DNA of 36,622 nucleotides from a virus (taxonomy: Duplodnaviria; Heunggongvirae; Uroviricota; Caudoviricetes), in IMG/VR virus record IMGVR_UViG_2531839531_000013, positions 1 to 36,622 of that record. One strand, given 5' to 3'. The notes beneath the pieces were generated by a model, which saw only the letters and a program-made list of their open reading frames with translations, made no database searches and was not told the origin of the DNA. This document shows positions 40 to 36,622 of this stretch, piece by piece. Made by a program: the position numbers and the translations under genes. Numbering within the stretch: the stretch's first letter is position 1; the number at the start of each line of letters is the position of its first letter.

Positions 40-402
40 GGGGCTGATTCTGGATTCGACGGGATTTGCGAAACCCAAGGTGCATGCCGAGGGGCGGTTG
101 GCCTCGTAAAAAGCCGCAAAAAATAGTCGCAAACGACGAAAACTACGCTTTAGCAGCTTAATAACCTGCTTAGAGCCCTCTCTCCCTAGCCTCCGCTCTT
201 AGGACGGGGATCAAGAGAGGTCAAACCCAAAAGAGATCGCGTGGAAGCCCTGCCTGGGGTTGAAGCGTTAAAACTTAATCAGGCTAGTTTGTTAGTGGCG
301 TGTCCGTCCGCAGCTGGCAAGCGAATGTAAAGACTGACTAAGCATGTAGTACCGAGGATGTAGGAATTTCGGACGCGGGTTCAACTCCCGCCAGCTCCAC
401 CA
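40..402 (+). ncRNA. ssrA: tmRNA (SsrA), complete 363 nt
   Basis: Begins GGGGCTGATTCTGGATTCGAC and ends GGTTCAACTCCCGCCAGCTCCACCA (tRNA-Ala-like acceptor and T arm). Internal tag ORF GCAAACGACGAAAACTACGCTTTAGCAGCTTAA = ANDENYALAA* at 129-161. Recognised as the E. coli-type ssrA. Confidence 0.97.
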
Positions 403-404
403 AA
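358..404. repeat. attL core: 47-bp direct repeat formed by the ssrA 3' end
   Basis: atgtaggaatttcggacgcgggttcaactcccgccagctccaccaaa is identical to 35131-35177. The flanking bases differ on both sides (g/t upstream, t/a downstream). Confidence 0.92.
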
Positions 405-410
405 TAAATC

Positions 411-441
411 AAGGGGTTACGTGAAAGCGTAGCCCTTTTTT
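411..441 (+). terminator. Phage-supplied replacement terminator for ssrA (possibly bidirectional, also closing the RT gene)
   Basis: Hairpin GGGTTACG-tgaaag-CGTAGCCC (414-435) followed by TTTTTT (436-441), 9 nt after the tmRNA CCA end. On the minus strand the same hairpin is followed by gatttattt. Confidence 0.6.
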
Positions 442-450
442 CTTTAGTAG

Positions 451-469
451 TGGCGGCAAAATGGCGGCA
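451..469 (+). repeat. Putative Int arm-type binding sites (TGGCGGCA x2, 11-bp phasing)
   Basis: tggcggca at 451-458 and 462-469. The same octamer, in the same orientation and with the same 11-bp phasing, recurs next to the other att copy (35018-35036). Confidence 0.4.
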
Positions 470-510
470 GACATTCAGTCAAGCCCAGTTGCTACTACAT
501 GCGATCGCAA

Positions 511-1284
511 TTACAACTTAAAGAGTTTCGCTTGCCCTGGATTAACAGCTTCGACGTAGTTTTTGACCCCTATTCTGTGCGGCTCATAATTGCTTGAATA
601 GAAATCAATCAGGAAGTCACTCATTTTCTGAGATGTGACTTTCATAACTCCCTTACTCAAAGTTAAATTAAACACGCTAATCTTTGACGATGGTGCCTGA
701 GTTTTACTCATGTTGGCTTGATAACCAGATTTACGCATTGCCACTAGTGCTTCGTCGTAAGCCGCTTGTAATTGGGCCAAATCGTTTGACGAGATGATCA
801 CATCATCCATAAACACACTTAGCTTGAGATCATGATGTTTGTTCAATCGGCGTAGTAAGCTACCAAAATAACTTTTATCTAAGCAGAGGGTTGCAAGTAT
901 TGGAGATTGAACAAAACCAAAAGGGAGGACATGCTTATGTGGACTATGGGACAAGTTTCTTACAGTTGAAAATGTTGAGATTTCCCGCGCTTGAGAATAG
1001 GTGAAGTAGCTCTTTAGATCACGGGTGATACGACTACGGCTCGTTGACTGAAAAAATTGTTTAATATCAACAACGGCAAAAAAATCACTTTTTAAGTGTA
1101 ATCTGGCAGCTTTAAGATGCCCACCAGTTCTTAGATGGTAAAAATAGAGTGGCGGAATCCACTTGTTTCTGACATCCTGAAGTATCTTCCCTCCGACTTT
1201 ACGTGCCTCAACGCTTGGGACATAAACCCAAACCCCGGGCTTAATCTCAAATTTATCTTCCCACCTTTGAACTTCTATTGTCAT
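511..1284 (-). CDS. Compact reverse transcriptase-like protein (257 aa), cargo
   Basis: RT palm motifs occur in the correct order: FFAVVDIKQFFQS (motif A, Asp73), LPFGFVQSPILATL (motif B'), and FMDD (motif C, residues 158-161, codons 802-813). There is a retron-like AARLH just upstream of motif A. ATG at 1282-1284, with no own SD; the start lies inside the upstream ORF. Confidence 0.8.
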   Translation of the reverse strand: MTIEVQRWEDKFEIKPGVWVYVPSVEARKVGGKILQDVRNKWIPPLYFYHLRTGGHLKAARLHLKSDFFAVVDIKQFFQSTSRSRITRDLKSYFTYSQAREISTFSTVRNLSHSPHKHVLPFGFVQSPILATLCLDKSYFGSLLRRLNKHHDLKLSVFMDDVIISSNDLAQLQAAYDEALVAMRKSGYQANMSKTQAPSSKISVFNLTLSKGVMKVTSQKMSDFLIDFYSSNYEPHRIGVKNYVEAVNPGQAKLFKL

Positions 1285-1426
1285 GAGTTAAATTGTTGTA
1301 GTTGAAGGCCATGTTAAGAACGGCGTAAACCGCACCAACTAAGCCAACAAACGCGGTTGCGCATTTGAGCATAGCGGTGATCAGTTCAACACGCGCCTTA
1401 ACTAAGCCAAGTTCGTTTGTATCCAT
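1253..1426 (-). CDS. Small predicted membrane protein (57 aa from the second ATG), overlapping the RT start by 32 nt
   Basis: GGAGGA (1434-1439) lies 7 nt upstream of ATG 1426. Product MDTNELGLVKARVELITAMLKCATAFVGLVGAVYAVLNMAFNYNNLTHDNRSSKVGR has one hydrophobic helix (about ITAML...LNMAF) and a polar, basic tail. Confidence 0.45.
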   Translation of the reverse strand: MDTNELGLVKARVELITAMLKCATAFVGLVGAVYAVLNMAFNYNNLTHDNRSSKVGR

Positions 1427-23521: not shown

Positions 23522-24220
23522 TTATTTGTTTCTTCTTTGTTCACGCCTTGTCTTGGCTTCGATAAGGCGTTGAGGTTCAGTGTAAAGCCGTTCTAAAAAA
23601 AGATAGGTAAAATCTTCAAGATCCTCAGCAGCAGCTTTATCCAAAATACCTTCATGCGCTCCATCATTTCCGTCATCTTTAACGCATTCAGCTAGTTCCC
23701 TTAAAGCTTCAGGCAGTAGATGATTATCAAATAACCACTCCATTCTTAACCCTAGGCTTCTCCTTATTTTTTGCGCAGGCCCTTGCTCCCCATCAGGAAG
23801 AAGTCCTTTTGTGGCATAATCAAGGCAAAGCCTAAACATGGTTGCTGCTGCATTATAACAACCTATAGCCAAACATTTCGCCCCTTCCTCATATGCACTA
23901 TTGATATGCTCAGGTAAGAACTCTGGTGGCTCCTCTACTGCTAAGTCTGCCGGTGATATAGGCCTAACAACCTCTGCAACTTCCTTTAAGCCGAATATTC
24001 CACTTTCCCAATTATAGCCATCTAAAGTTTTATTTTTCGTTAAAGGTCTGCAAAGAAACATTGTCGTTTTATGACACTCTCGGCAAACACAATAGACCTC
24101 GTATTCGTATGTTTTACCCCCGCCCAATGCATTGTAAACCCTAGTGCAATTCAGCCCATTAACATCAAACGCTATTTTTTGTGATCCACATCGTGGACAG
24201 TCATCCACTAACATAACCAT
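23522..24220 (-). CDS. Zinc-ribbon + DUF4145-like domain protein (cargo, 232 aa)
   Basis: The N-terminus CPRCGS...x34...CVCRECHK has four Cys. The C-terminal LGLRMEWLFDNHLLPEALRELAECVKDDGNDGAHEG...AEDLEDFTYLFLERLY matches my memory of the DUF4145 (PF13643) signature. The gene is AT-rich and has a GGGAGGAG SD. Confidence 0.7.
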   Translation of the reverse strand: MVMLVDDCPRCGSQKIAFDVNGLNCTRVYNALGGGKTYEYEVYCVCRECHKTTMFLCRPLTKNKTLDGYNWESGIFGLKEVAEVVRPISPADLAVEEPPEFLPEHINSAYEEGAKCLAIGCYNAAATMFRLCLDYATKGLLPDGEQGPAQKIRRSLGLRMEWLFDNHLLPEALRELAECVKDDGNDGAHEGILDKAAAEDLEDFTYLFLERLYTEPQRLIEAKTRREQRRNK

Positions 24221-24288
24221 GTCAATTACTCCTCCCTATGAAAAAAATGAGTTGAAAAATTGAATATTCACGACTTAAAAAGCTAGCC

Positions 24289-24317
24289 TATTTAACACCA
24301 TAATTTCATTAATTCAA
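24289..24317 (-). promoter_or_regulatory. Putative sigma70 promoter of the ZnR-DUF4145 gene
   Basis: On the minus strand: TTGAAT (24317-24312), a 17-nt spacer, then TAAATA (24294-24289). It begins 14 bp from the cos core. Confidence 0.45.
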
Positions 24318-24330
24318 CCATGAGCGCGCG

Positions 24331-24349
24331 CTCGTATCCCCGCCACGCC
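24331..24349. other. Probable cos cohesive-end site
   Basis: The reverse complement GGCGTGGCGGGGATACGAG shares its first 13 nt with the 19-nt 186 cos end as I remember it (GGCGTGGCGGGGAAAGCAT; P2 GGCGAGGCGGGGAAAGCAC). It sits in a GC-rich patch at the expected position beyond Q. Confidence 0.55.
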
Positions 24350-24390
24350 TGCCCGCTTTGTGTAGTGGTTTTCATGCACCTGCATGACAT

Positions 24391-24418
24391 AAGCAAAAGC
24401 CCGCCAGCTCTGGCGGGC
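24391..24418 (-). terminator. Rho-independent terminator downstream of the HNH gene
   Basis: On the minus strand: GCCCGCCAG-ag-CTGGCGGGC followed by TTTTGCTT. Confidence 0.6.
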
Positions 24419-24531
24419 ATCAGCAAAAACGATCCTCAAACGATCATGCGATTTCATGCGGCATAGACATGCGTTGGCAAAAATGTACGAAATACTCAGC
24501 TTATAGGAAATGGTCTTTTTCCAACCTCCAG

Positions 24532-25251
24532 TTAGCCAAAGCAGAAACCAATATTGCAATTTGAAACTCCACAGTTGTGAAATTGATGTGGACCTACTCT
24601 TAGCTTGTGTTCGTCTCCTACAATCCGAGTCCCCTTAACCAACATATCTAATCTTTCCACAATCAATCTTTCAGGCGCATCAACTTTAATAATTAAACGA
24701 GGACCTTTCCTTTTTTCTATAATAGTTATTCTAGGACCGACAACCTGAACATCCCAATGCCTTGCACTACAAACCCACTCATTCTTAATTAATTCAAGAT
24801 TAACAATACCTTGACTATCGTAAAATTTACCCGAAATAAGAAAAGCATTATTTTCTTTTTCAATGGTTAACAATGGCTCATTTTGAAACATTATTGGTAC
24901 AGTACAGGATTCAAACGTCGCACCACCAAATATTATTGTTGGATGCCTATCAGAAAAGTCCAATATATCGGCCACATTCCCTTTTTGTAAGGCTGCAGGA
25001 GATTCCATTGCTTTAATTATTTTCTCTTTAGAGTAAAGACGTTTCGTTACTTTCGCATGGCACGTAGGACAAAGTAGTGCTATTGCATTTGGAGAGTGCT
25101 CCTTTGCATCAGCGTATGTGGGAATTACATGCTCATACTCAACAATGGGAGAAGCACAAACAACGCAACCGAAGCCACAGCGCTGCCTTACCTCCAGTTT
25201 TACAGGTTCAGGAATTGTTCTAGATAACCCATGCTTGTTAATAGTTGTCAT
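24532..25251 (-). CDS. HNH endonuclease domain protein with unknown C-terminal domain (cargo, 239 aa)
   Basis: CGFGCVVC...VEYEHVIP...HSPNAIALLCPTCHAK carries the HNH/zinc motifs. The C-terminal ~150 aa are beta-rich with no motif I recognise. The gene is AT-rich and occupies the P2 old/tin position. Confidence 0.8.
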   Translation of the reverse strand: MTTINKHGLSRTIPEPVKLEVRQRCGFGCVVCASPIVEYEHVIPTYADAKEHSPNAIALLCPTCHAKVTKRLYSKEKIIKAMESPAALQKGNVADILDFSDRHPTIIFGGATFESCTVPIMFQNEPLLTIEKENNAFLISGKFYDSQGIVNLELIKNEWVCSARHWDVQVVGPRITIIEKRKGPRLIIKVDAPERLIVERLDMLVKGTRIVGDEHKLRVGPHQFHNCGVSNCNIGFCFG

Positions 25252-25959: not shown

Positions 25960-28374
25960 TTAATACAGGTTTCGCCACTTATCATCTTCCTGCAAACGCT
26001 GGTTCCGATAGAAGATACGCAGGCCTGCTCCTGACGGAATACTGCCGCCGCGAAGGAGTAAATCGACCTCTTTCTCGCTGCCATCAAATCCTCTGGACTT
26101 CAGTTCATAGACGAGCTGCTGTCGCTGATGGTCTGTAATTCGCTGTTTGTAGTCTTTACGCCGTTTCGGTTTCACCAGGCGTAACCTTGCAGCCAGTTCC
26201 CGGCGCTCTTTTTTGCTCATACTGTGCAGGTAATCATGCAACTCCTTGTCATCCATGCGGGTAATGTCCGTCCTGGTATCCCCATCAGCTGATTTGTCTT
26301 TCCCTTGTTGGTTCAAATTTTCAGCAAGGGGACAGTTATTGCCACGAGTCCAAGGGGCGCAAGCGCCCTGGTCGGCTGCCGCCTCCTGAACGTCAACGGC
26401 TTTACGAACCATTTTCCACTTCACTGCATGAGTGCAGATCTTGCCCTCTGCAATGGGTGACCAGATGCCATAAATACGAATACCATGATCGCCATAGGCG
26501 GTCGGCTCTTCGTTAATTTCATAAGCAGTTCTGATGAGGTGATATTTACGGGGAACCAGTACACCTCCCTGCTTCATGATATAGGTGGCAAAACAACCAG
26601 CATCAGCAGCAGCCAGAATGGCATCAAGGCGCGGGTTATCCAGTACCGGCACACCTGCTTTTTTGTCACCCTGCTGCCTTGCCGCCTGACCAGCCAGCAA
26701 TCGCAGTTCACGGTAAGCCTGACGCCCCGGAATGCCAAAGAAGCGGAATTGCTGAACACGATGCAAAGACGCCCAGGCATTCACGTATTCAGCATTATCA
26801 CGCAGAGATTTACCCGTTTCCTTGCTGATCTCGCCAGCCAGACCACGCCCGTCAATGTTCTTGCTGATATATTTCGCGATGTAGCTTGTCGGCGTTCCTT
26901 TGCGCGGGTTAATCAACTCAGACTTAAAGCGTGGTCCCGTGTTATTCCCCAGCTCCTCGCGGTCTTCACGAATGGCAAACTTACGCAACAAAGCAGTAAT
27001 GGCGCGGCGATCTTTTTTGCGCATAAAACACAACAGGTGCCAGTGAACTGTACCGTCATGATGCGGCTCAGCCACCCGCACGCCATACCAGCGCAATCCG
27101 GCTTTGTGCATAGCCTTACGAAATGCAGCAAACATGCCGACCAGATAATCGCTGCTTTGTCTTACTGTCGCGTTGGTCCAGGTCGGGTTTGGCCTGCCGT
27201 TATTTAGCGTGGAATGGAAACGTGACGGACAGGTGATGGTGTAGAAAACGGCGCAGTCACCACGCATTTCCGCGATAAGCTCCAGACCTTTAACGCAGGC
27301 CATCATCTCATTGCGGCGATGCGCCGGGTTGCTGCTGCTGGCGTTTACCACATCCTCCATGTCCAGCATGTCGCCGTCTTCGTTCACCAGTTCATGAGAA
27401 CGGAAAAACTCCAGAGACTTACGGCGCTGCTCACGTTTATGCATCACGGCTTCATAGCTGACATAGGGAGATGCTTTTTTGCTGACCAGACAGACAGCAC
27501 GCAACTGCTCTTCCCGCCATTCGCAACGCATCTTCCATAATTTCCGATACCACCAGTCGGCGCACAGCATACGCGCCAGCGAACCCGGAATGAGTTCATA
27601 GGGCACAGGTTTGCGGCGGTTTCTTTTCCGGCGGAGTTGCTCAAACGCAGGCGGTATGACATCCAGTCGCAGGGTTTCTGCTGCCACCTTTTCCCATGTC
27701 TTGCGGATTTCTTCCGGCTTAACATCATCGGAGGCGTACAAATCACCACAAGCGGCATCAAGACACATGCTCATATGCGCAGCGACAAGGGTGGACAGGC
27801 GTTTCACCTGATCCTGACTCATTTCAGGCAGGATCAGCAGACCGTCCAGCCCTTCATGGCTTGCCATAAAACGAAAAGATGCAGATAGCTGGCTGTCGCG
27901 TACATGCTCCAGTCGTTCCAGGCATGGCTTAATCGTCTCACGCAAATAGCGGGAATAAGCCTTTGGCCTGCCCAGGTTGCTGAAGTATTTAATACGTTGC
28001 ATCAGCGGCTTGCTGATATGGGAAGGCTGGGCGTTGACATCCGCCAGAATGACCATATCCGGATTAAAACGCTGCTGCTCATGCGCCAGCTTTGCCCGGC
28101 TAATTAGCTTATCCTGCTCCATTTCGCGCTGGACAGGATCACGGGATTCATTAAAGAAATAACGCTCCCAGACCTGATCACTCAGTGCCTCGCGGCGCAG
28201 TTGTTCCTGCTCGTTATCGGCAGCGTACAGAGTGATCAGGTTTGAAAGCGCAGAAACCGGCGCAACTTCCGCCGGGTCCAGATAAGGGTTAATGGCCTTT
28301 TTCGGGCTGTTCCATGAGAATGCTGCGGCAGCCTCGTTAAAGCCGCAGCAGTTGTTCATATCGGCATGACTCAT
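25960..28374 (-). CDS. A: Replication initiation endonuclease gpA (HUH rolling-circle type)
   Basis: 804 aa with the HUH motif TVHWHLLCF and the Tyr motif [12 protein letters not shown]. Confidence 0.9.
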
Positions 28375-29228
28375 GCACGTACTCCGTACACGGCAGAACT
28401 GTCCACGCCACGCGAATAATCAAATCCCACCCAGCAGCGCGGCCCGGAAACAGCAATGATTTCTGTTGCTGATTTACCCTCGCCAGCTGCCACACCGATG
28501 CTGCGTTTTGCTTTGATGTAGTGGTGGGTGAAATTGCGATACAACGAACGGATCAGGGATGTGTCACTGTTAGAAACAATGACCGGATGTCCTTCTGATA
28601 ACCGATGTTCAAGAACGGATGCCAGGTGATACTGGTCATCTTCAGTGAAACCATCAGTGTGATAGCCGGAAAACGTACCGTCATACGGCGGATCGCAATA
28701 CACCACATCCCCCGCCTTCAACATCGCCAGCGTTTCATCAAAGCTGGCGCAGATAAACGTTGCTCGCTGGGCTTTTTCTGCAAATGCGCGAATTTCTTTT
28801 TCAGGGAAATACGGATTTTTATAATTACCGTAGGGAATGTTGAAATGCCCGCTCTTGTTATAGCGACATAAACCACGGTAACCGTGACGATTGAGATACA
28901 GGAAATATACCGCTTTCATGAAATCAGTAATTTCAGTTGAGTAATTAAACTCCTGCCTTATGTTGTAATAAGCCACCTCCCTGTTTGCTTCCTCAAATAA
29001 AGCTCTGGCGCGAGATATAAACGATTCACAATCAGCAGCAACCTTTTTATAGAGGTTGATTAAATCAGGATTAATATCCGCAACAAGATAGCTGGGGTAC
29101 TCCGTCTCCATCATCACAGCACAGGAACCCGCGAAAGGTTCAACCAGTCGCGGGCCAGCAGGAAGATGCTTTTTCAGTTCGGACATAATGGCGGTTTTAT
29201 TTCCCGCCCATTTCAGGATGGTGCTCAT
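28371..29228 (-). CDS. dam: DNA adenine methyltransferase (Dam family, orphan)
   Basis: [17 protein letters not shown] (SAM-binding) and DPPY motifs. The start is taken at MSTILKW (GGAGG SD), overlapping the upstream stop. Confidence 0.9.
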
Positions 29229-29452
29229 ACAGCACCTCCGTTGTAATGTTTGCCTTTCAGCTCTGCGATTTCCTGACAGGTAATGCAAAGCTGCACACCC
29301 GGAATGGCGCGGCGGCGTGCTGGCGGAATTGGCGCTTCACACTCAATGCAAAGCACGCGGGACACGCCCGGCGTTTTGGCACGGGCAGAACGGATATGGC
29401 GCTGGCGTTCTTCTTCAACGCGCTGCTGTACGAGATCCATTGCATCAGCCAT
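29225..29452 (-). CDS. TraR/DksA-family zinc-finger protein
   Basis: C-terminal CIECEAPIPPARRRAIPGVQLCITCQ is a four-Cys finger. Confidence 0.8.
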   Translation of the reverse strand: MADAMDLVQQRVEEERQRHIRSARAKTPGVSRVLCIECEAPIPPARRRAIPGVQLCITCQEIAELKGKHYNGGAV

Positions 29453-31806: not shown

Positions 31807-32823
31807 ATGACTGTCAGAAAACAGCCAAACGGCAAATGGTTGTGTGAGTGCTATCCCAATGGACGCAATGGCAAGCGCGTGCGTAAGCAATTTGCTACGA
31901 AAGGAGAAGCCATTGCTTTTGAAAGCTTCACAATGGAAGAAGTGAATAAAAAACCGTGGCTAGGTGAAAAGGATGATCGGCGACGCCTATCAGAATTAAT
32001 TGAGCTTTGGTATTCCCTGTATGGCCAGACACTCGCAGACCCCAAGCGCCTCATGGCGAAACTTAGAATTATCTGTAATGGTCTAGGCGACCCCATCGCC
32101 TCAGAACTGACAGCCGGTGACTTTACAAAATACCGCGAAGCACGGTTAAAAGGCGACGTTCGTAACGAAGACGGCACACTAATGTCGCCAGTAAAACCAC
32201 GCACGGTGAATCTTGAGCAACGTAACCTATCATCGGTTTTCGGCACATTGAAAAAACTAGGCCACTGGTCAGCACCAAATCCTCTCGCCGGGCTGCCAAC
32301 ATTTAAAATCGCTGAGGGGGAACTGGCGTTCCTGACCTCGGAAGAAATTAAACGTCTGCTAGATGCCTGCGCTGATTCTCAAAACCCCAGTCTGCTTTTG
32401 ATTGCAAAAATATGCCTGGCCACCGGCGCACGCTGGAGTGAAGCCGAAAACCTGCAGGGCCATCAGTTATCTAAATACCGCATCACTTATACCAAGACGA
32501 AGGGCAAGAAAAACCGCACCGTGCCGATATCTCAAGATCTGTATGACGAACTCCCCAAGAACAGAGGGAAGCTATTCACCCCGTGCAGAAAAGCCTTTGA
32601 ACGGGCAGTAAAGCGAGCTGGCATCGAGCTGCCAGAGGGCCAATGCACTCACGTGCTACGTCATACATTCGCCAGTCATTTTATGATGAATGGCGGAAAC
32701 ATACTGGTCCTACGCGATATTCTGGGCCATGCCGATATAAAAATGACGATGATTTACGCCCACTTTTCGCCGGATCATCTTGAAGATGCAGTTACTAAAA
32801 ACCCTTTATGCAACTTAAGATAG
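31807..32823 (+). CDS. int: Tyrosine integrase (P2/186 family)
   Basis: 338 aa with ATGARWSEA (Arg), HVLRHTFASH (HxxR) and LGHADIKMTMIYAH (His/Tyr). Confidence 0.9.
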   Translation: MTVRKQPNGKWLCECYPNGRNGKRVRKQFATKGEAIAFESFTMEEVNKKPWLGEKDDRRRLSELIELWYSLYGQTLADPKRLMAKLRIICNGLGDPIASELTAGDFTKYREARLKGDVRNEDGTLMSPVKPRTVNLEQRNLSSVFGTLKKLGHWSAPNPLAGLPTFKIAEGELAFLTSEEIKRLLDACADSQNPSLLLIAKICLATGARWSEAENLQGHQLSKYRITYTKTKGKKNRTVPISQDLYDELPKNRGKLFTPCRKAFERAVKRAGIELPEGQCTHVLRHTFASHFMMNGGNILVLRDILGHADIKMTMIYAHFSPDHLEDAVTKNPLCNLR

Positions 32824-33201: not shown

Positions 33202-34935
33202 CTACTCAAGAAGATATTCTAACTCATCTTTTATCGGGATAACTTGCTCATAAAGTCGGTGATATGACTTCCCAATTGCGCCTCTGAATTGTATTAACTT
33301 TGGTGGCTTGTTACCTATATTAATAATATGGTCTTGAGCTATACCTGGGTAGGGATCAATAAATACAATTTCAGATATACCTAACTGATAAGCTTTTTTC
33401 GCACACAGCTCACAGGGACTGGCAGTTGTATATAACCTCCCCCCCTGAACGCCAATGCCACCATATTTTGCAAGTTGTAAAAATGCGTTTTCCTCAGCAT
33501 GTAATGCACGTGTATGAACTTGATTACCTTTTTTATCTTTATCAAGATCATTATGTATATCTTTAAAACAATAAGATAAGTTCCTGCCTCTATAAATATC
33601 ACCAGTTTTATCTATCGCCCTAAAATTTAATAGTTTCTCATTAGCTTTAATTCTGAAAGAACTATTATTTCTCTCATAATGACTGTACACTTTTTCATCA
33701 AAGTCGTTCATTAGGCCATCTAGCGATCTCATAGAGCAAGGAATCTGACCGTTGGCGACATCATTCCAACCCACTGATTTTATTGAATTTTCACCATCAG
33801 TTACTACAGCTCCCACCTGTCTAGATATACAACCAGAGTTTAATTTTACCGTATACGCAACTTGCATAACCCTTTCCATTGCAGTAGGTGTTATCAGACC
33901 AGGATGCTTCATCAGTGCGATGTACCACGCTAATTGTGCTTTTAAAATATTGTCATTATCAAATTCATTTTTTGGGTTAAAAATGTGTATATCTGATAGT
34001 TCAATGCATTTAGTTACATTTGGATTAGTGAGATGTTTGTAAGAGTTATCACCTTTACCTGACTCTACAGAATCTATTTCCTCTATCTGCTTTTCAGAAA
34101 ACTTATGTAGTTTCCGCAAATAGTTTGTTCGATGTTCATCTGGGGCATTTATTGACATTAAATGAAATGCAGAATATCTATCCTTAAAAAATTTTGCTTC
34201 ATATGGATTTCTAATAGCATCTATGACAATTAATGCGTTATCTCTTTTGCTTTTTCTTATTAATTTAATAACCCTATTAATAGTTTCCGGCAAATGAAAA
34301 ACAGATTTAGGTATAAACTCTTTATCTTCAAAATCGACTTCAATACGCCCACGGCGTCTAATTGACTTACCTGCTAACTGATAGACTGAAACATATAAAT
34401 TTGAGTTTATCGCATTTAGTTCAGCTTTGAATTCCTTAGTAAATTTTCTAACTAACCTCAAAATTGATATAAATTTATTAATCGTTTTTTCATTAAGCTT
34501 CAATTCACTATTATGATCAAGCAAATTCTCAATTACATTTTTAAATCTTGTTAAAATGAGATTATCTGAAAATACACCAAAAGTTAATACATTATCTAAA
34601 TGCTCTTTACTGATAGATTTATTAGATGATAGAATAAACTCAGAAGCTTCTTCAACTGTTAACATCAAAAGATACGCTGAGATTAGGTCACTCACCTTAA
34701 TTGAGTAAAAATTTTCCCAGTGATTTTCTGCGAATTTTTTAACTATATTATAACGATGGACATCCAATCCCTTGTAAAAACCCTGTAATTTACTTACATC
34801 AGGGAAGACTGTTTTTTCGTTTTCAAGAATATTAGCTGTTGTTGTGCAACCAGAACCAGTTCGACCTGTCAAACCGACTAAAATAAACTGCCCATTTTCA
34901 AGGAAAAGCTCACTAACGAATTTTTTTTCTTTCAT
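33202..34935 (-). CDS. P-loop kinase-like + cytidine/dCMP deaminase fusion (dCTP-deaminase type anti-phage protein)
   Basis: N-terminal Walker A GLTGRTGSGCTT. C-terminal zinc-deaminase motifs RQVGAVV, HAEENA and PCELCAKK. The region is very AT-rich (for example, 34441-34500 has 11 G/C in 60 nt). ATG 34935 is preferred over GTG 34938. Confidence 0.85.
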   Translation of the reverse strand: MKEKKFVSELFLENGQFILVGLTGRTGSGCTTTANILENEKTVFPDVSKLQGFYKGLDVHRYNIVKKFAENHWENFYSIKVSDLISAYLLMLTVEEASEFILSSNKSISKEHLDNVLTFGVFSDNLILTRFKNVIENLLDHNSELKLNEKTINKFISILRLVRKFTKEFKAELNAINSNLYVSVYQLAGKSIRRRGRIEVDFEDKEFIPKSVFHLPETINRVIKLIRKSKRDNALIVIDAIRNPYEAKFFKDRYSAFHLMSINAPDEHRTNYLRKLHKFSEKQIEEIDSVESGKGDNSYKHLTNPNVTKCIELSDIHIFNPKNEFDNDNILKAQLAWYIALMKHPGLITPTAMERVMQVAYTVKLNSGCISRQVGAVVTDGENSIKSVGWNDVANGQIPCSMRSLDGLMNDFDEKVYSHYERNNSSFRIKANEKLLNFRAIDKTGDIYRGRNLSYCFKDIHNDLDKDKKGNQVHTRALHAEENAFLQLAKYGGIGVQGGRLYTTASPCELCAKKAYQLGISEIVFIDPYPGIAQDHIINIGNKPPKLIQFRGAIGKSYHRLYEQVIPIKDELEYLLE

Positions 34936-35017
34936 CACGTCCCACTTATGAATGTAAGAATATTCAACATATTAATTATAATTTATTAACTCATTTTGTT
35001 CTAGATACTTGATGTAA

Positions 35018-35380: not shown

Positions 35381-36622
35381 ATGGCAAGACAAACCAAACC
35401 TCTATCCGTTAAAGAAATAGAATCAGCCAAACCCAAGGAGGCGGACTACGTTCTCTATGATGGCGATGGCCTTGAGCTACTCATTAAATCCAGCGGGAGT
35501 AAAATCTGGCAGTTTCGCTACATTCGCCCTGTCACCAAGAAACGAGCAAAGAAGAGCATAGGCTCCTACCCGTCAGTTACCCTTGCCGATGCCAGAAACT
35601 ACCGTGCAGAGTCCCGCTCACTACTGGCTAAACAGATCGATCCGCAGGAACATCAGCAAGAACAATTGCGCAGTTCGCTGGAAGCCAAAACCAACACTTT
35701 CCAACTCGTAGCTGAACGTTGGTGGAATGTGAAGAAAGCCAGTGTGACAGAGGACTATGCGGAAGATATCTGGCGCTCTCTTGAAAGAGACGTCTTTCCT
35801 GCGATTGGCGACGTTAGCGTTACAGATATTAAAGCTCATACACTGGTTCAGGCCGTACAACCGGTTCAGGCCAGAGGAGCACTGGAAACTGTTCGTCGCC
35901 TGTGCCAACGTATTAATGAGGTCATGATCTATGCCCAGAACACAGGGCTGATTGATGCTGTTCCCAGCGTTAATATCGGTAAAGCCTTCGAGAAGCCTCA
36001 GAAAAAGAACATGCCCAGCATTCGACCGGATCAGCTACCTCAGTTAATGCAGACGATGCGAACAGCCAGCATTAGCCTTTCCACACGCTGCCTGTTCATG
36101 TGGCAACTTCTTACTATTACCCGCCCTGCCGAAGCGGCTGAAGCTCTCTGGGAAGAGGTAGACATAGAAGCGCGAGAGTGGAAGATTCCTGCAGCACGCA
36201 TGAAAATGAACCGCGACCATACTGTTCCATTGTCAGATGAAGCAATTGCGATACTAGAGATGATGAAGCCGTTAAGTGGAAATCGAGAATTTATCTTTCC
36301 CAGCCGCATCAAGCCAAACCAGCCGATGAACAGTCAGACCGTAAACGCATCGCTAAAACGCGCAGGTTTTGGTGGGGTGCTCGTTTCACACGGCCTGCGA
36401 TCTATCGCCAGTACAGCCCTTAATGAGCAGGGATTTCCACCTGATGTTATTGAGGCTGCACTTGCTCATGTGGATAAGAATGAGGTTCGTCGTGCGTATA
36501 ACCGTAGTGATTATCTTGAGCAGCGACGGCCTATGATGCAGTGGTGGGCTGATTTTGTGATGGCTGCAGATCACGGTAGTATGATTGAAGGAGGGATAAA
36601 GGCAATGCGGTTAGTTGGATGA
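35381..36622 (+). CDS. intA: P4-family tyrosine integrase (CP4-57 IntA-like)
   Basis: 413 aa. MARQTKPL...LYDGDGL.LLIKSSGSK.WQFRY N-terminus, with TITRPAEAA, HGLRSIAST and AHVDKNEVRRAYNRSDY catalytic motifs. Closely resembles K-12 IntA as I remember it. Confidence 0.93.
   Translation: MARQTKPLSVKEIESAKPKEADYVLYDGDGLELLIKSSGSKIWQFRYIRPVTKKRAKKSIGSYPSVTLADARNYRAESRSLLAKQIDPQEHQQEQLRSSLEAKTNTFQLVAERWWNVKKASVTEDYAEDIWRSLERDVFPAIGDVSVTDIKAHTLVQAVQPVQARGALETVRRLCQRINEVMIYAQNTGLIDAVPSVNIGKAFEKPQKKNMPSIRPDQLPQLMQTMRTASISLSTRCLFMWQLLTITRPAEAAEALWEEVDIEAREWKIPAARMKMNRDHTVPLSDEAIAILEMMKPLSGNREFIFPSRIKPNQPMNSQTVNASLKRAGFGGVLVSHGLRSIASTALNEQGFPPDVIEAALAHVDKNEVRRAYNRSDYLEQRRPMMQWWADFVMAADHGSMIEGGIKAMRLVG

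Follow-up and report, generated by a model that had tools for sequence, protein, structure and literature searches.

Retrons of type VI are defined by a helix-turn-helix (HTH) protein, accompanied in a subset of them by small accessory proteins (Mestre et al. 2020, PMC7736814). The HTH protein is of the Cro/C1 type (cluster 2_1), and its gene lies upstream of, or overlaps, the reverse transcriptase (RT) gene in about 78% of cases (PMC7736814); the small accessory proteins fall into clusters cl2075, cl2760, cl3272 and cl3897, plus the small proteins (SPs) of the "Large" lineage. In Retron-Vpa2 the SP is a toxin whose ribosome-binding site (RBS), together with the start codon, is sequestered within a hybrid RNA carrying msr-msd; the HTH protein represses reverse transcription, and multicopy single-stranded DNA (msDNA) derepresses SP translation (Zhang et al. 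2025, 10.1101/2025.10.22.683967). In Retron-Sen3 the SP is also toxic and is neutralised post-translationally by the HTH protein, the RBS is located in the basal stem, and a long-range pairing (IR1-IR2) joins the non-coding RNA (ncRNA) to the SP region (Garcia-Rodriguez et al. 2026, 10.64898/2026.04.27.721009). Type VI retrons make little or no msDNA without a trigger (10.64898/2026.04.27.721009), which is provided by phage recombination proteins or Gam blocking host nucleases and leads to reverse transcription or accumulation of complementary DNA (cDNA). Here we describe a related design in the Caudoviricetes record IMGVR_UViG_2531839531_000013, analysed over its positions 1 to 36,622 (36,622 nt, hereafter the window), where a 57-codon open reading frame (ORF) on the minus strand is located between a structured leader RNA and the gene of a compact RT. 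With a probability that we put at roughly 55%, this ORF encodes the SP of a retron-like defence module that is self-contained and has three parts (the leader ncRNA, the SP and the RT), and in which the SP is an RNA-gated effector co-translated with the RT.

The locus resembles the type VI retrons Vpa2, Eco12 and Sen3 in several respects: a gene for a small helical protein lies between a structured ncRNA and the RT gene, the RBS of the SP is sequestered in RNA, the fold of this RNA takes in the SP coding region (hybrid RNA, hyRNA), the SP has a hydrophobic C-terminal core, and the system is carried on P2-like phages, as are gp44 and gp45 of phage KS5. The position and size of the SP match those of the type VI small accessory proteins. 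An earlier reading made from the sequence alone (hereafter the sequence-only reading) had considered a mini-ORF between the ncRNA and the RT unusual for a retron; this view is outdated, since the position is a hallmark of type VI retrons and is occupied by the SPs of Retron-Vpa2 and Retron-Sen3. Unlike these systems, the window locus lacks a Cro/C1 HTH gene, whose product acts as antitoxin in Sen3 and represses reverse transcription in Vpa2. No HTH_VI match was obtained in the locus with PADLOC, and no conserved neighbour gene was found in a sample of 80 loci (79 loci with relatives of the RT, one genome per species, plus the window locus) spanning gamma-, beta- and alphaproteobacteria and a few other phyla; in this sample no neighbouring gene family, upstream or downstream, was common to more than 6 loci. 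Because the SP gene abuts or overlaps the RT gene in every locus, there is no room for an HTH gene between them. With no other conserved neighbour, the system consists of the leader RNA, the SP and the RT, and the SP is the only candidate for the third retron component. The locus also differs from type VI in its RT_VI score (63 bits, versus 260 for KS5 gp44), in the length of its RT (about 255 aa versus about 280-340), in the invariant Asn-Tyr motif that its SP has of its own, and in the overlap of the SP with the RT, to which it is translationally coupled or fused. On these sequence comparisons, the locus is best filed as an HTH-less variant of the type VI-like hybrid-RNA retron design and not as a demonstrated type VI member.

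The small gene and its reverse transcriptase

The SP gene (1253-1426, minus strand; 57 aa plus stop) begins with the ATG at 1426-1424, separated by a 7-nt spacer from a GGAGGA Shine-Dalgarno (SD) sequence at 1439-1434, and ends with a TAA at 1255-1253; read directly from the letters, this confirms the start and extent given by the sequence-only reading. Its product corresponds to WP_000380485.1, a "hypothetical protein" for which the Prokaryotic Genome Annotation Pipeline (NCBI/RefSeq) chose the start of the same 57-aa ORF. A 62-aa version beginning at the in-frame ATG at 1441 was rejected, given that this ATG is inside the SD, lacks an SD of its own and is unconserved (ACG in locus L001).

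To speak against an effector, according to the sequence-only reading, the ORF should be interrupted or not conserved in homologous loci. Under a strict motif, a small ORF with an ATG and an SD, ending at or inside the RT start or abutting it, was present in 71 of the 80 loci. A manual look at the other nine revealed the same ORF in four, an Asp-Tyr variant in one, and an in-frame fusion to the RT in two, so that an SP equivalent occurs overall in 78 of the 80 loci; the exceptions are one locus disrupted by an insertion sequence (IS) and one truncated by its contig. The disrupted locus (L014, positions 1-230) belongs to Candidatus Erwinia dacicola, a degraded symbiont genome in which an IS-type transposase gene reading into the RT region replaces the leader and the SP, and it is the only one with a clear loss of the SP. 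Among nine Enterobacterales loci, the SP showed a median nonsynonymous divergence (dN) of 0.10 and a median synonymous divergence (dS) of 0.37, with a dN/dS of about 0.28, and its variable sites were distributed 10/8/24 by codon position. The peptides are very divergent across the family (mean identity of 16%); family-wide, they are about 40-60 aa long, have a basic segment (MKK..RLV) at the N-terminus and a long hydrophobic helix, and carry a near-invariant Asn-Tyr close to the C-terminus, with the invariant Tyr encoded by TAT in 35 cases and by TAC in 34. A profile search found SP-like peptides labelled "hypothetical protein" in many genomes. Judging from these comparisons, the SP ORF is a genuine conserved gene under purifying selection and tied to the RT. 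That it could be an untranslated chance ORF in a non-coding leader is hardly credible: small ORFs are common by chance and this one has no significant protein-family match, but the retention of ORF, SD and ATG in 78 of the 80 loci, together with the coding pattern of its substitutions, effectively refutes this idea.

The partner of the SP is a compact retron-type RT of 257 aa (511-1284, minus strand; Pfam RVT_1, 1.8e-21). Models of retron RTs headed the PADLOC matches: RT_VI was the best PADLOC model for the window RT (62.7 bits) and the top PADLOC RT model for 19 of 19 diverse family members (E = 1.9e-24 at best). In the Burkholderia P2-like phage KS5, which carries a bona fide type VI retron, gp44 reached 260.3 bits on RT_VI and gp45 reached 117 bits on HTH_VI; the window RT is 24% identical to the KS5 RT (gp44). 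Searched against PDB, the family profile gave 17 matches, mostly to named retron RTs, and the best relatives (Ec86, Eco8, Kva2, Ec78, Ec67 and Ec83) aligned over nearly the full length, with the alignment to Ec86 beginning at its residue 60; in PADLOC, the match to RT_VI begins at position 50 of that profile. The best NCBIfam model, retron_St85_RT, remained far under its cut-off. Retron RTs carry a "VTG" motif in addition to their catalytic motif; the consensus of the present family has (Y/F)MDD as the catalytic motif and VFN at the position of "VTG". An exhaustive profile search delimited a family of 269 clusters at 50% identity (E<=1e-30), almost all of the 150 best-listed matches were about 250-265 aa long, and the start ATG of the RT is at a conserved position before W-x-HKFEIKPG. 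None of 11 family RT accessions is included in the published 292-sequence tree of types IV, V and VI, and a tblastn search of the RT against phages returned only 13 near-identical Klebsiella P2-like phages and no type VI RT. The RT is retron-type on this evidence, and we conclude from profile scores and identity that its family is distinct, compact and retron-like, with the type VI RTs as its nearest described relatives. Identity as Retron-Vpa2 and, more tentatively, as Retron-Eco12 was rejected, as the Vpa2 and Sen3 SPs show no visible relationship to this one and the family accessions are outside the published tree; DRT2, Abi-P2 and other UG RTs were also rejected, as no model matched above noise in PADLOC or NCBIfam.

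The last 32 nt of the SP gene (1253-1284) overlap the RT gene, whose ATG at 1284 is in another frame and has no SD. The calculated duplex with the 3' end of the 16S rRNA was -9.3 kcal/mol at the SP start and +2.6 kcal/mol at the RT start of the window, and in 70 distinct loci the SP start showed a median of -8.4 kcal/mol (93% at or below -5) versus -1.5 kcal/mol (13%) for the RT start. Throughout the family, the RT always starts inside the SP ORF; the two overlap by 4-116 nt, and the RT is in the +1 frame in most loci and in the -1 frame in others. Both the overlap with an SD-less RT and the translational coupling that had been proposed from the sequence alone are borne out by these data. In addition, the SP and the RT form a single ORF in L041, in L062, and in clusters P0036 (K. 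pneumoniae), P0020 (Serratia) and P0110 (Pantoea). The P0036 fusion, a chromosomal 302-aa protein encoded beside umuDC and an SRAP/yedK gene and found in 7802 index blocks, keeps the whole leader, including the a1/a2 stem, the anti-SD and the UUAGUU motif described below; in the fusions, the SP portion corresponds to a helix of about 45 residues at the N-terminus of the RT. The overlapping ORFs and the natural in-frame fusions would also be expected if SP and RT were one gene, either read by programmed ribosomal frameshifting or split by mutation. We consider this very improbable, because the overlap varies in length and the RT frame is +1 mostly and -1 elsewhere, the SP tail that forms the overlap is unconserved and so offers no common slippery site, the RT starts with an ATG of its own that is conserved in position, and the split layout is found in about 75 independent loci.

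The leader RNA and its pairing with the SP gene

The 271 nt upstream of the SP are predicted to fold into a multi-stem structure with a 12-bp closing stem (z = -3.25). From fold and conservation, we delimited in this region a retron-like, msr-msd-like ncRNA of about 180 nt (1446-1624; this and all the elements that follow are on the minus strand), which extends from the a1 arm to the a2 arm and is kept in about 60 homologous loci. A search of Rfam with positions 1-2200 (E<=1) gave only the neighbouring tmRNA and weak permuted-tmRNA echoes, and the leader was unmatched. The a1 arm, GCCUGACGU (1616-1624), pairs with the a2 arm, ACGUCAGGU (1446-1454), in a duplex of -18.1 kcal/mol. In a 41-sequence alignment (A3), compensatory changes were observed at 9 of the 10 pairs and the core was nearly 100% paired; this degree of covariation was reached in none of 500 shuffles, and when the partner was shifted by 1-3 columns, pairing fell from 90% to 29-42%. 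Directly 3' of a1 there is a UAG (1613-1615), whose T, A and G are invariant in 41 of 41 aligned sequences, with G1613 as the candidate branching (priming) G; we take this context to be comparable to the UUAGC that presumably surrounds the branching G of Ec86. Further along the RNA are the predicted stem-loop SL1, GGGGAUUUAUCCCC (1598-1611), at the place where most homologues have a UAGGCnn...nnGCCUA stem-loop; the stem-loop SL2, GUCGC-UUU-GCGAC (1565-1577), which is GUCAC-N3-GUGAU in most homologues, with 95.6% of cells paired and compensatory changes at one pair; the conserved motif UUURGUU (1479-1485); and, just 5' of a2, a GCGC-loop-GCGC hairpin (1461-1470), with 99.4% of cells paired and a GCAC/GUGC compensatory change in one locus. 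The comparative evidence identifies the leader as a retron-style ncRNA with a covarying a1/a2 closing stem and an invariant UAG after a1. A promoter scan of the minus strand revealed no sigma-70 consensus promoter for the leader. A 49-aa ORF at 1477-1626 was rejected as the missing HTH gene, since it is wholly within the ncRNA, has no family match and is unconserved as a protein. In some relatives gene callers place a 58-aa ORF over the ncRNA (L084, 1275-1451), probably a spurious call on structured RNA.

An inverted-repeat scan revealed that the SD region is complementary to the segment just 5' of the GUCAC hairpin (SL2). This anti-SD, CUCCGUAGAUAU (1585-1596), is complementary to positions 1436-1447 of the SD arm (1434-1447); the paired strand, GUAUCUAUGGAG (1447-1436), holds the first four bases of GGAGGA, and the resulting 12-bp duplex was calculated at -18.0 kcal/mol. 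Both sequences vary between loci and their complementarity is retained. As MAFFT misregistered the SD region, the pairing was evaluated by anchoring on SL2, independently of the SD, and by permuting own-locus against cross-locus duplexes: the own-locus mean was -13.85 kcal/mol, the cross-locus mean was -9.69 kcal/mol, and none of 10,000 permutations attained the observed value. According to this covariation, an anti-SD in the 5' part of the ncRNA hides the SD of the SP. The helices a1/a2 and anti-SD/SD cross each other (in the order a1, anti-SD, a2, SD), have 2 nt in common (1446-1447) and, at -18.1 and -18.0 kcal/mol, are isoenergetic in the window, suggesting that they constitute a pseudoknot or a two-state switch.

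A second pairing involves the SP coding sequence itself. The codons for Asn42 and Tyr43 (AAC UAC, 1298-1303) specify an invariant Tyr and an Asn present in more than 90% of the sequences in two alignments, and AACUA (1303-1299) can form a 5-bp helix with the UAGUU (1483-1479) of the UUURGUU motif, from which it is separated by about 175 nt. The variable base of UUURGUU and the third base of the Asn codon were, in this order, G/C in 52 loci, A/U in 8, G/U in 1 and A/C, a mismatch, in 1 (Fisher p = 2.4e-8, uncorrected for phylogeny); AAC accompanies RGUU in the 52 loci and AAU accompanies RAUU in the 8, and at least 4-5 separate lineages have the AAU state. In this helix the Tyr codon leaves its third base unpaired, which accounts for the free choice between TAT and TAC. 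It seems, from the alignments, that the Asn42-Tyr43 codons are under joint protein and RNA constraint, and the pairing of these codons with an ncRNA motif near a2 indicates that the SP coding sequence belongs to the folded RNA, as a "hybrid RNA". RNA-level constraint on the coding region is also suggested by its synonymous divergence, which is lower in the SP (median dS of 0.37) than in the RT (0.73 to saturated). The covarying anti-SD and the pairing between coding region and ncRNA, like the lack of an HTH antitoxin and the SP-RT fusions, are features beyond those that the sequence-only reading had noticed.

These same observations could be explained if the ORF were a leader or upstream ORF in which the act of translation is what matters, delivering ribosomes to the SD-less RT start and melting the pairings between ncRNA and coding region, and so tuning RT synthesis and RNA folding. 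Such a function would be consistent with an RT that has no SD and always starts within the ORF, with the pairing of the coding region to the ncRNA and its low dS, with a mean peptide identity of just 16%, and with an unconserved C-terminal tail. Nevertheless, we consider it quite unlikely, because the dN/dS of about 0.28 and the strong third-position bias reveal selection on amino acids; length, basic MKK..RLV N-terminus, hydrophobic helix and positive charge are kept across alpha-, beta- and gammaproteobacteria despite the sequence turnover; and the Tyr is invariant even though its unpaired third base leaves the choice between TAT and TAC free.

Two other observations were made around the Asn-Tyr codons. 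In the fused loci (L092-L094, 2501-3409; P0036, P0020 and P0110; L041 and L062) there are ATG codons right after them. In alphaproteobacterial loci, including L066, L068, L073 and L079 (at about 3001 in each), the scanned RT start codon overlaps the Tyr codon (AAC UAU G), so that one set of six bases would take part in the SP motif, in the RNA helix and in the initiation of the RT.

The small protein as a candidate effector

An AlphaFold2 model built with 60 homologues predicts the SP as one continuous helix comprising residues 3-41 (mean pLDDT, the predicted local distance difference test score, of 79, and above 90 for residues 11-40), followed by a disordered tail. In the window SP, 27 uncharged residues follow one another without a break, and the highest Kyte-Doolittle score over 19 residues (maximum KD19) is 1.94. 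Of 69 SPs of the family, 52 reach a maximum KD19 of at least 1.6 (median of 1.82), and nearly all of the peptides are net cationic; at least 18 consecutive uncharged residues were found in only 12 of the 69. Thus, the single transmembrane (TM) helix of about 23 residues proposed by the sequence-only reading is only partly borne out. It agrees with the window allele; on sequence criteria, a classical single TM segment is not a trait of the family, the polar, basic tail is unconserved in it, and the resemblance to holins has found no specific support. From the model and the composition, a membrane-active helix is plausible, and a single helix that is cationic and very hydrophobic would suit a small effector acting on membranes.

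What is mainly uncertain is whether the SP is a toxin or a subunit of the RT. As a subunit, it would be non-toxic and serve the RT as a structural accessory or an N-terminal module, for example by anchoring it in the membrane, by acting as a dimerisation helix or by standing in for the approximately 60 N-terminal residues that are absent relative to Ec86, and the output of the system would be the cDNA or an effector encoded elsewhere. This possibility is suggested by the in-frame SP-RT fusions in several lineages, including the very abundant K. pneumoniae variant, by a coupling that makes SP:RT production obligately 1:1, by the alignment of the RT only from residue 60 of Ec86 and position 50 of RT_VI, and by the charges that interrupt the hydrophobic helix in most members. 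The fusions fit a toxin as well as a subunit, because retron effectors are often fused to RTs: fusions of this kind are normal in types I-C (RT-Toprim), VII-A1 (RT-DUF3800), XI (RT-protease) and XII (RT-TIR) (PMC7736814), so they are no argument against an effector. In those systems, as here, the two proteins are separate or form one polypeptide depending on the lineage; the known fusions differ in that they have an enzymatic domain at the C-terminus of the RT, whereas here a helix is at its N-terminus. Moreover, characterised retrons are tripartite and include an effector (PMC7736814), yet no other conserved gene is available for this role; the elaborate sequestration of the SD is hard to account for with a harmless subunit; and in the nearest characterised systems the SP at the same position is a toxin. 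For these reasons we regard a non-toxic RT module as rather unlikely.

The SP is probably a retron effector, and probably a membrane-active one. The conservation of the gene, its status as the only other conserved gene of the locus and the composition of the peptide lend comparative support to the candidate effector of the sequence-only reading; its toxicity is what we infer from them. In the mechanism that we propose, the SD would be mostly hidden in the uninfected cell, which would keep SP and RT at low levels and in a fixed ratio. Together with its cDNA, the RT would probably restrain the SP directly, in place of the absent HTH antitoxin. The a1/a2 and anti-SD/SD helices would act as a pseudoknot or a switch, and a phage-induced change in reverse transcription or in the stability of the cDNA would cause the template RNA to be remodelled or removed, exposing the SD. 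Once the SD is open, translation of the SP and the RT would increase, and this rise could be self-reinforcing because the RT is co-translated. The accumulated SP, as a cationic and strongly hydrophobic helix of 40 residues, would then cause membrane damage or another form of growth arrest, and the infection would be aborted.

Several points weigh against this proposal. The SP had no match in Pfam, PADLOC or NCBIfam, and its sole PHROGs match was non-significant (E = 0.079); when read side by side with the SPs of Sen3, Yersinia, Xenorhabdus (cl2075) and Vpa2, it showed no visible similarity to them. In most SPs charges break the hydrophobic stretch, which means that a classical TM helix is not general and that an amphipathic protein-binding helix would be equally compatible. 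The AACUA/URGUU helix is short, with 5 bp and one variable position only. In addition, if the RT depends on translation of the SP, the latter cannot be fully silent, and in the fused variants any synthesis of RT is also synthesis of SP; this disfavours a purely translational off-switch and makes necessary a post-translational restraint that is only assumed. Finally, the anti-SD is near the 5' end, where the msr and not the template is expected, and its removal by reverse transcription is therefore speculative.

A more specific version of the effector reading can be put forward only tentatively. According to it, the locus would represent an unclassified type of retron, a two-gene module composed of a hybrid RNA, the SP and a compact RT without HTH, in which a bistable RNA (a1/a2 against anti-SD/SD) would gate one RBS for both toxin and, through coupling or fusion, RT, reverse transcription would open its own translation in a positive-feedback burst leading to abortive infection by the SP, and the RT would be the antitoxin.

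Comparison with other systems, genomic setting and significance

The toxins of type I toxin-antitoxin systems (Hok, TisB, Ldr, Ibs, Fst) are, like the SP, peptides of up to about 60 aa that are cationic, hydrophobic and formed by a single helix, and their translation is also blocked by RNA structure that occludes the SD, with hok having in addition a long-range pairing between the 5' and 3' regions of its mRNA. The present locus differs from them in having a cis-acting retron ncRNA instead of an antisense RNA acting in trans, and a candidate toxin that is coupled to an RT; there is no sequence relationship. DRT2 combines a UG2 RT with an upstream ncRNA, and its rolling-circle cDNA encodes the Neo protein. 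It has in common with our locus a minimal RT with an upstream structured ncRNA and no large accessory gene; in contrast, the window RT has no Drt2 model match, the small ORF is conventional and pre-existing, and the ncRNA is of the retron type, with a1/a2 and UAG. The type IV retron Retron-Eco6 (Ec48), of the sister clade of type VI, has a small integral membrane effector and an RT of the same broad clade 3 (PMC7736814). Unlike the SP, the Ec48 effector is larger, has a signal peptide as well as two TM helices, and is encoded downstream of the RT or overlapping its 3' end, outside the ncRNA.

The window contains a P2/186-like prophage adjoining ssrA, and the retron-like module is cargo at the ogr/attR end of this P2-like prophage. 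Upstream of it on the minus strand are gpD (3097-1997) and Ogr (ending at 1688; Pfam Ogr_Delta); after Ogr there are about 250 nt of non-coding DNA, the SP ORF, the RT ORF, and then only the attachment region and the tmRNA gene (ssrA, 40-402, plus strand; Rfam). Weak Rfam tmRNA_permuted matches at 1-161 and 342-580 (plus strand), below the gathering threshold, are apparently echoes of ssrA or of the att duplication and not separate genes. Copies of the module at 99-100% identity occur in 13 Klebsiella P2-like phages and in 29 complete genomes of E. coli. Seven complete E. coli genomes (H82-H88; locus L083, 1352-2464) carry an IS421 element (IS4-like) that separates ogr from the leader, its insertion point coinciding exactly with the 5' edge of a1 (window position ~1623/1624); leader, SP and RT are still 99% intact in these genomes, and the native promoter has possibly been severed or replaced. 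In Buttiauxella, K. huaxiensis and Pectobacterium (L088, L089 and L091), the leader-SP-RT module occurs without the flanking ogr or gpD of the P2-type loci, which suggests that it is mobile independently of the phage; these modules are often still beside ybjL, and once beside a primase gene and a RelB/ParE pair.

Elsewhere in the window, the replication gene A (25960-28374) has two cargo-like genes as neighbours at 23522-25251 (minus strand), one encoding a 239-aa HNH-endonuclease protein and the other a DUF4145 protein of 232 aa. With this pair the prophage may have a second locus for defence or accessory functions. A Dam-type methyltransferase is encoded at 28371-29288. Beyond the prophage integrase gene (31807-32823) there are a gene for a 578-aa protein with a cytidine/deoxycytidylate deaminase domain (33202-34938, minus strand) and a second integrase gene, of the P4 type, that runs off the window (35381-36622, plus strand), suggesting the presence of tandem islands at the ssrA site.

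The family is present in P2-like prophages of E. coli, Klebsiella and S. Typhi and, in its chromosomal fused form, in very many K. pneumoniae assemblies. The locus is likely to represent a defence module that has gone unannotated in genomes of clinical importance (K. pneumoniae, S. Typhi and E. coli prophages), where the SP is labelled "hypothetical" and the RT has a generic label, and we expect that current defence-system finders would not call it. The module is also a very small and tractable system, with about 1.15 kb, two ORFs and one RNA, in which each pairing is open to compensatory mutagenesis, and the split, overlapping and fused forms of SP and RT provide a natural series on how retron RTs restrain their effectors. 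The principle of a toxin gene inside the retron RNA, as known from type VI, has so far been described in two preprints only; if our reading is true, this principle would be extended to a second, large RT family without an HTH regulator, which would help to separate the role of the RNA from that of the HTH protein.

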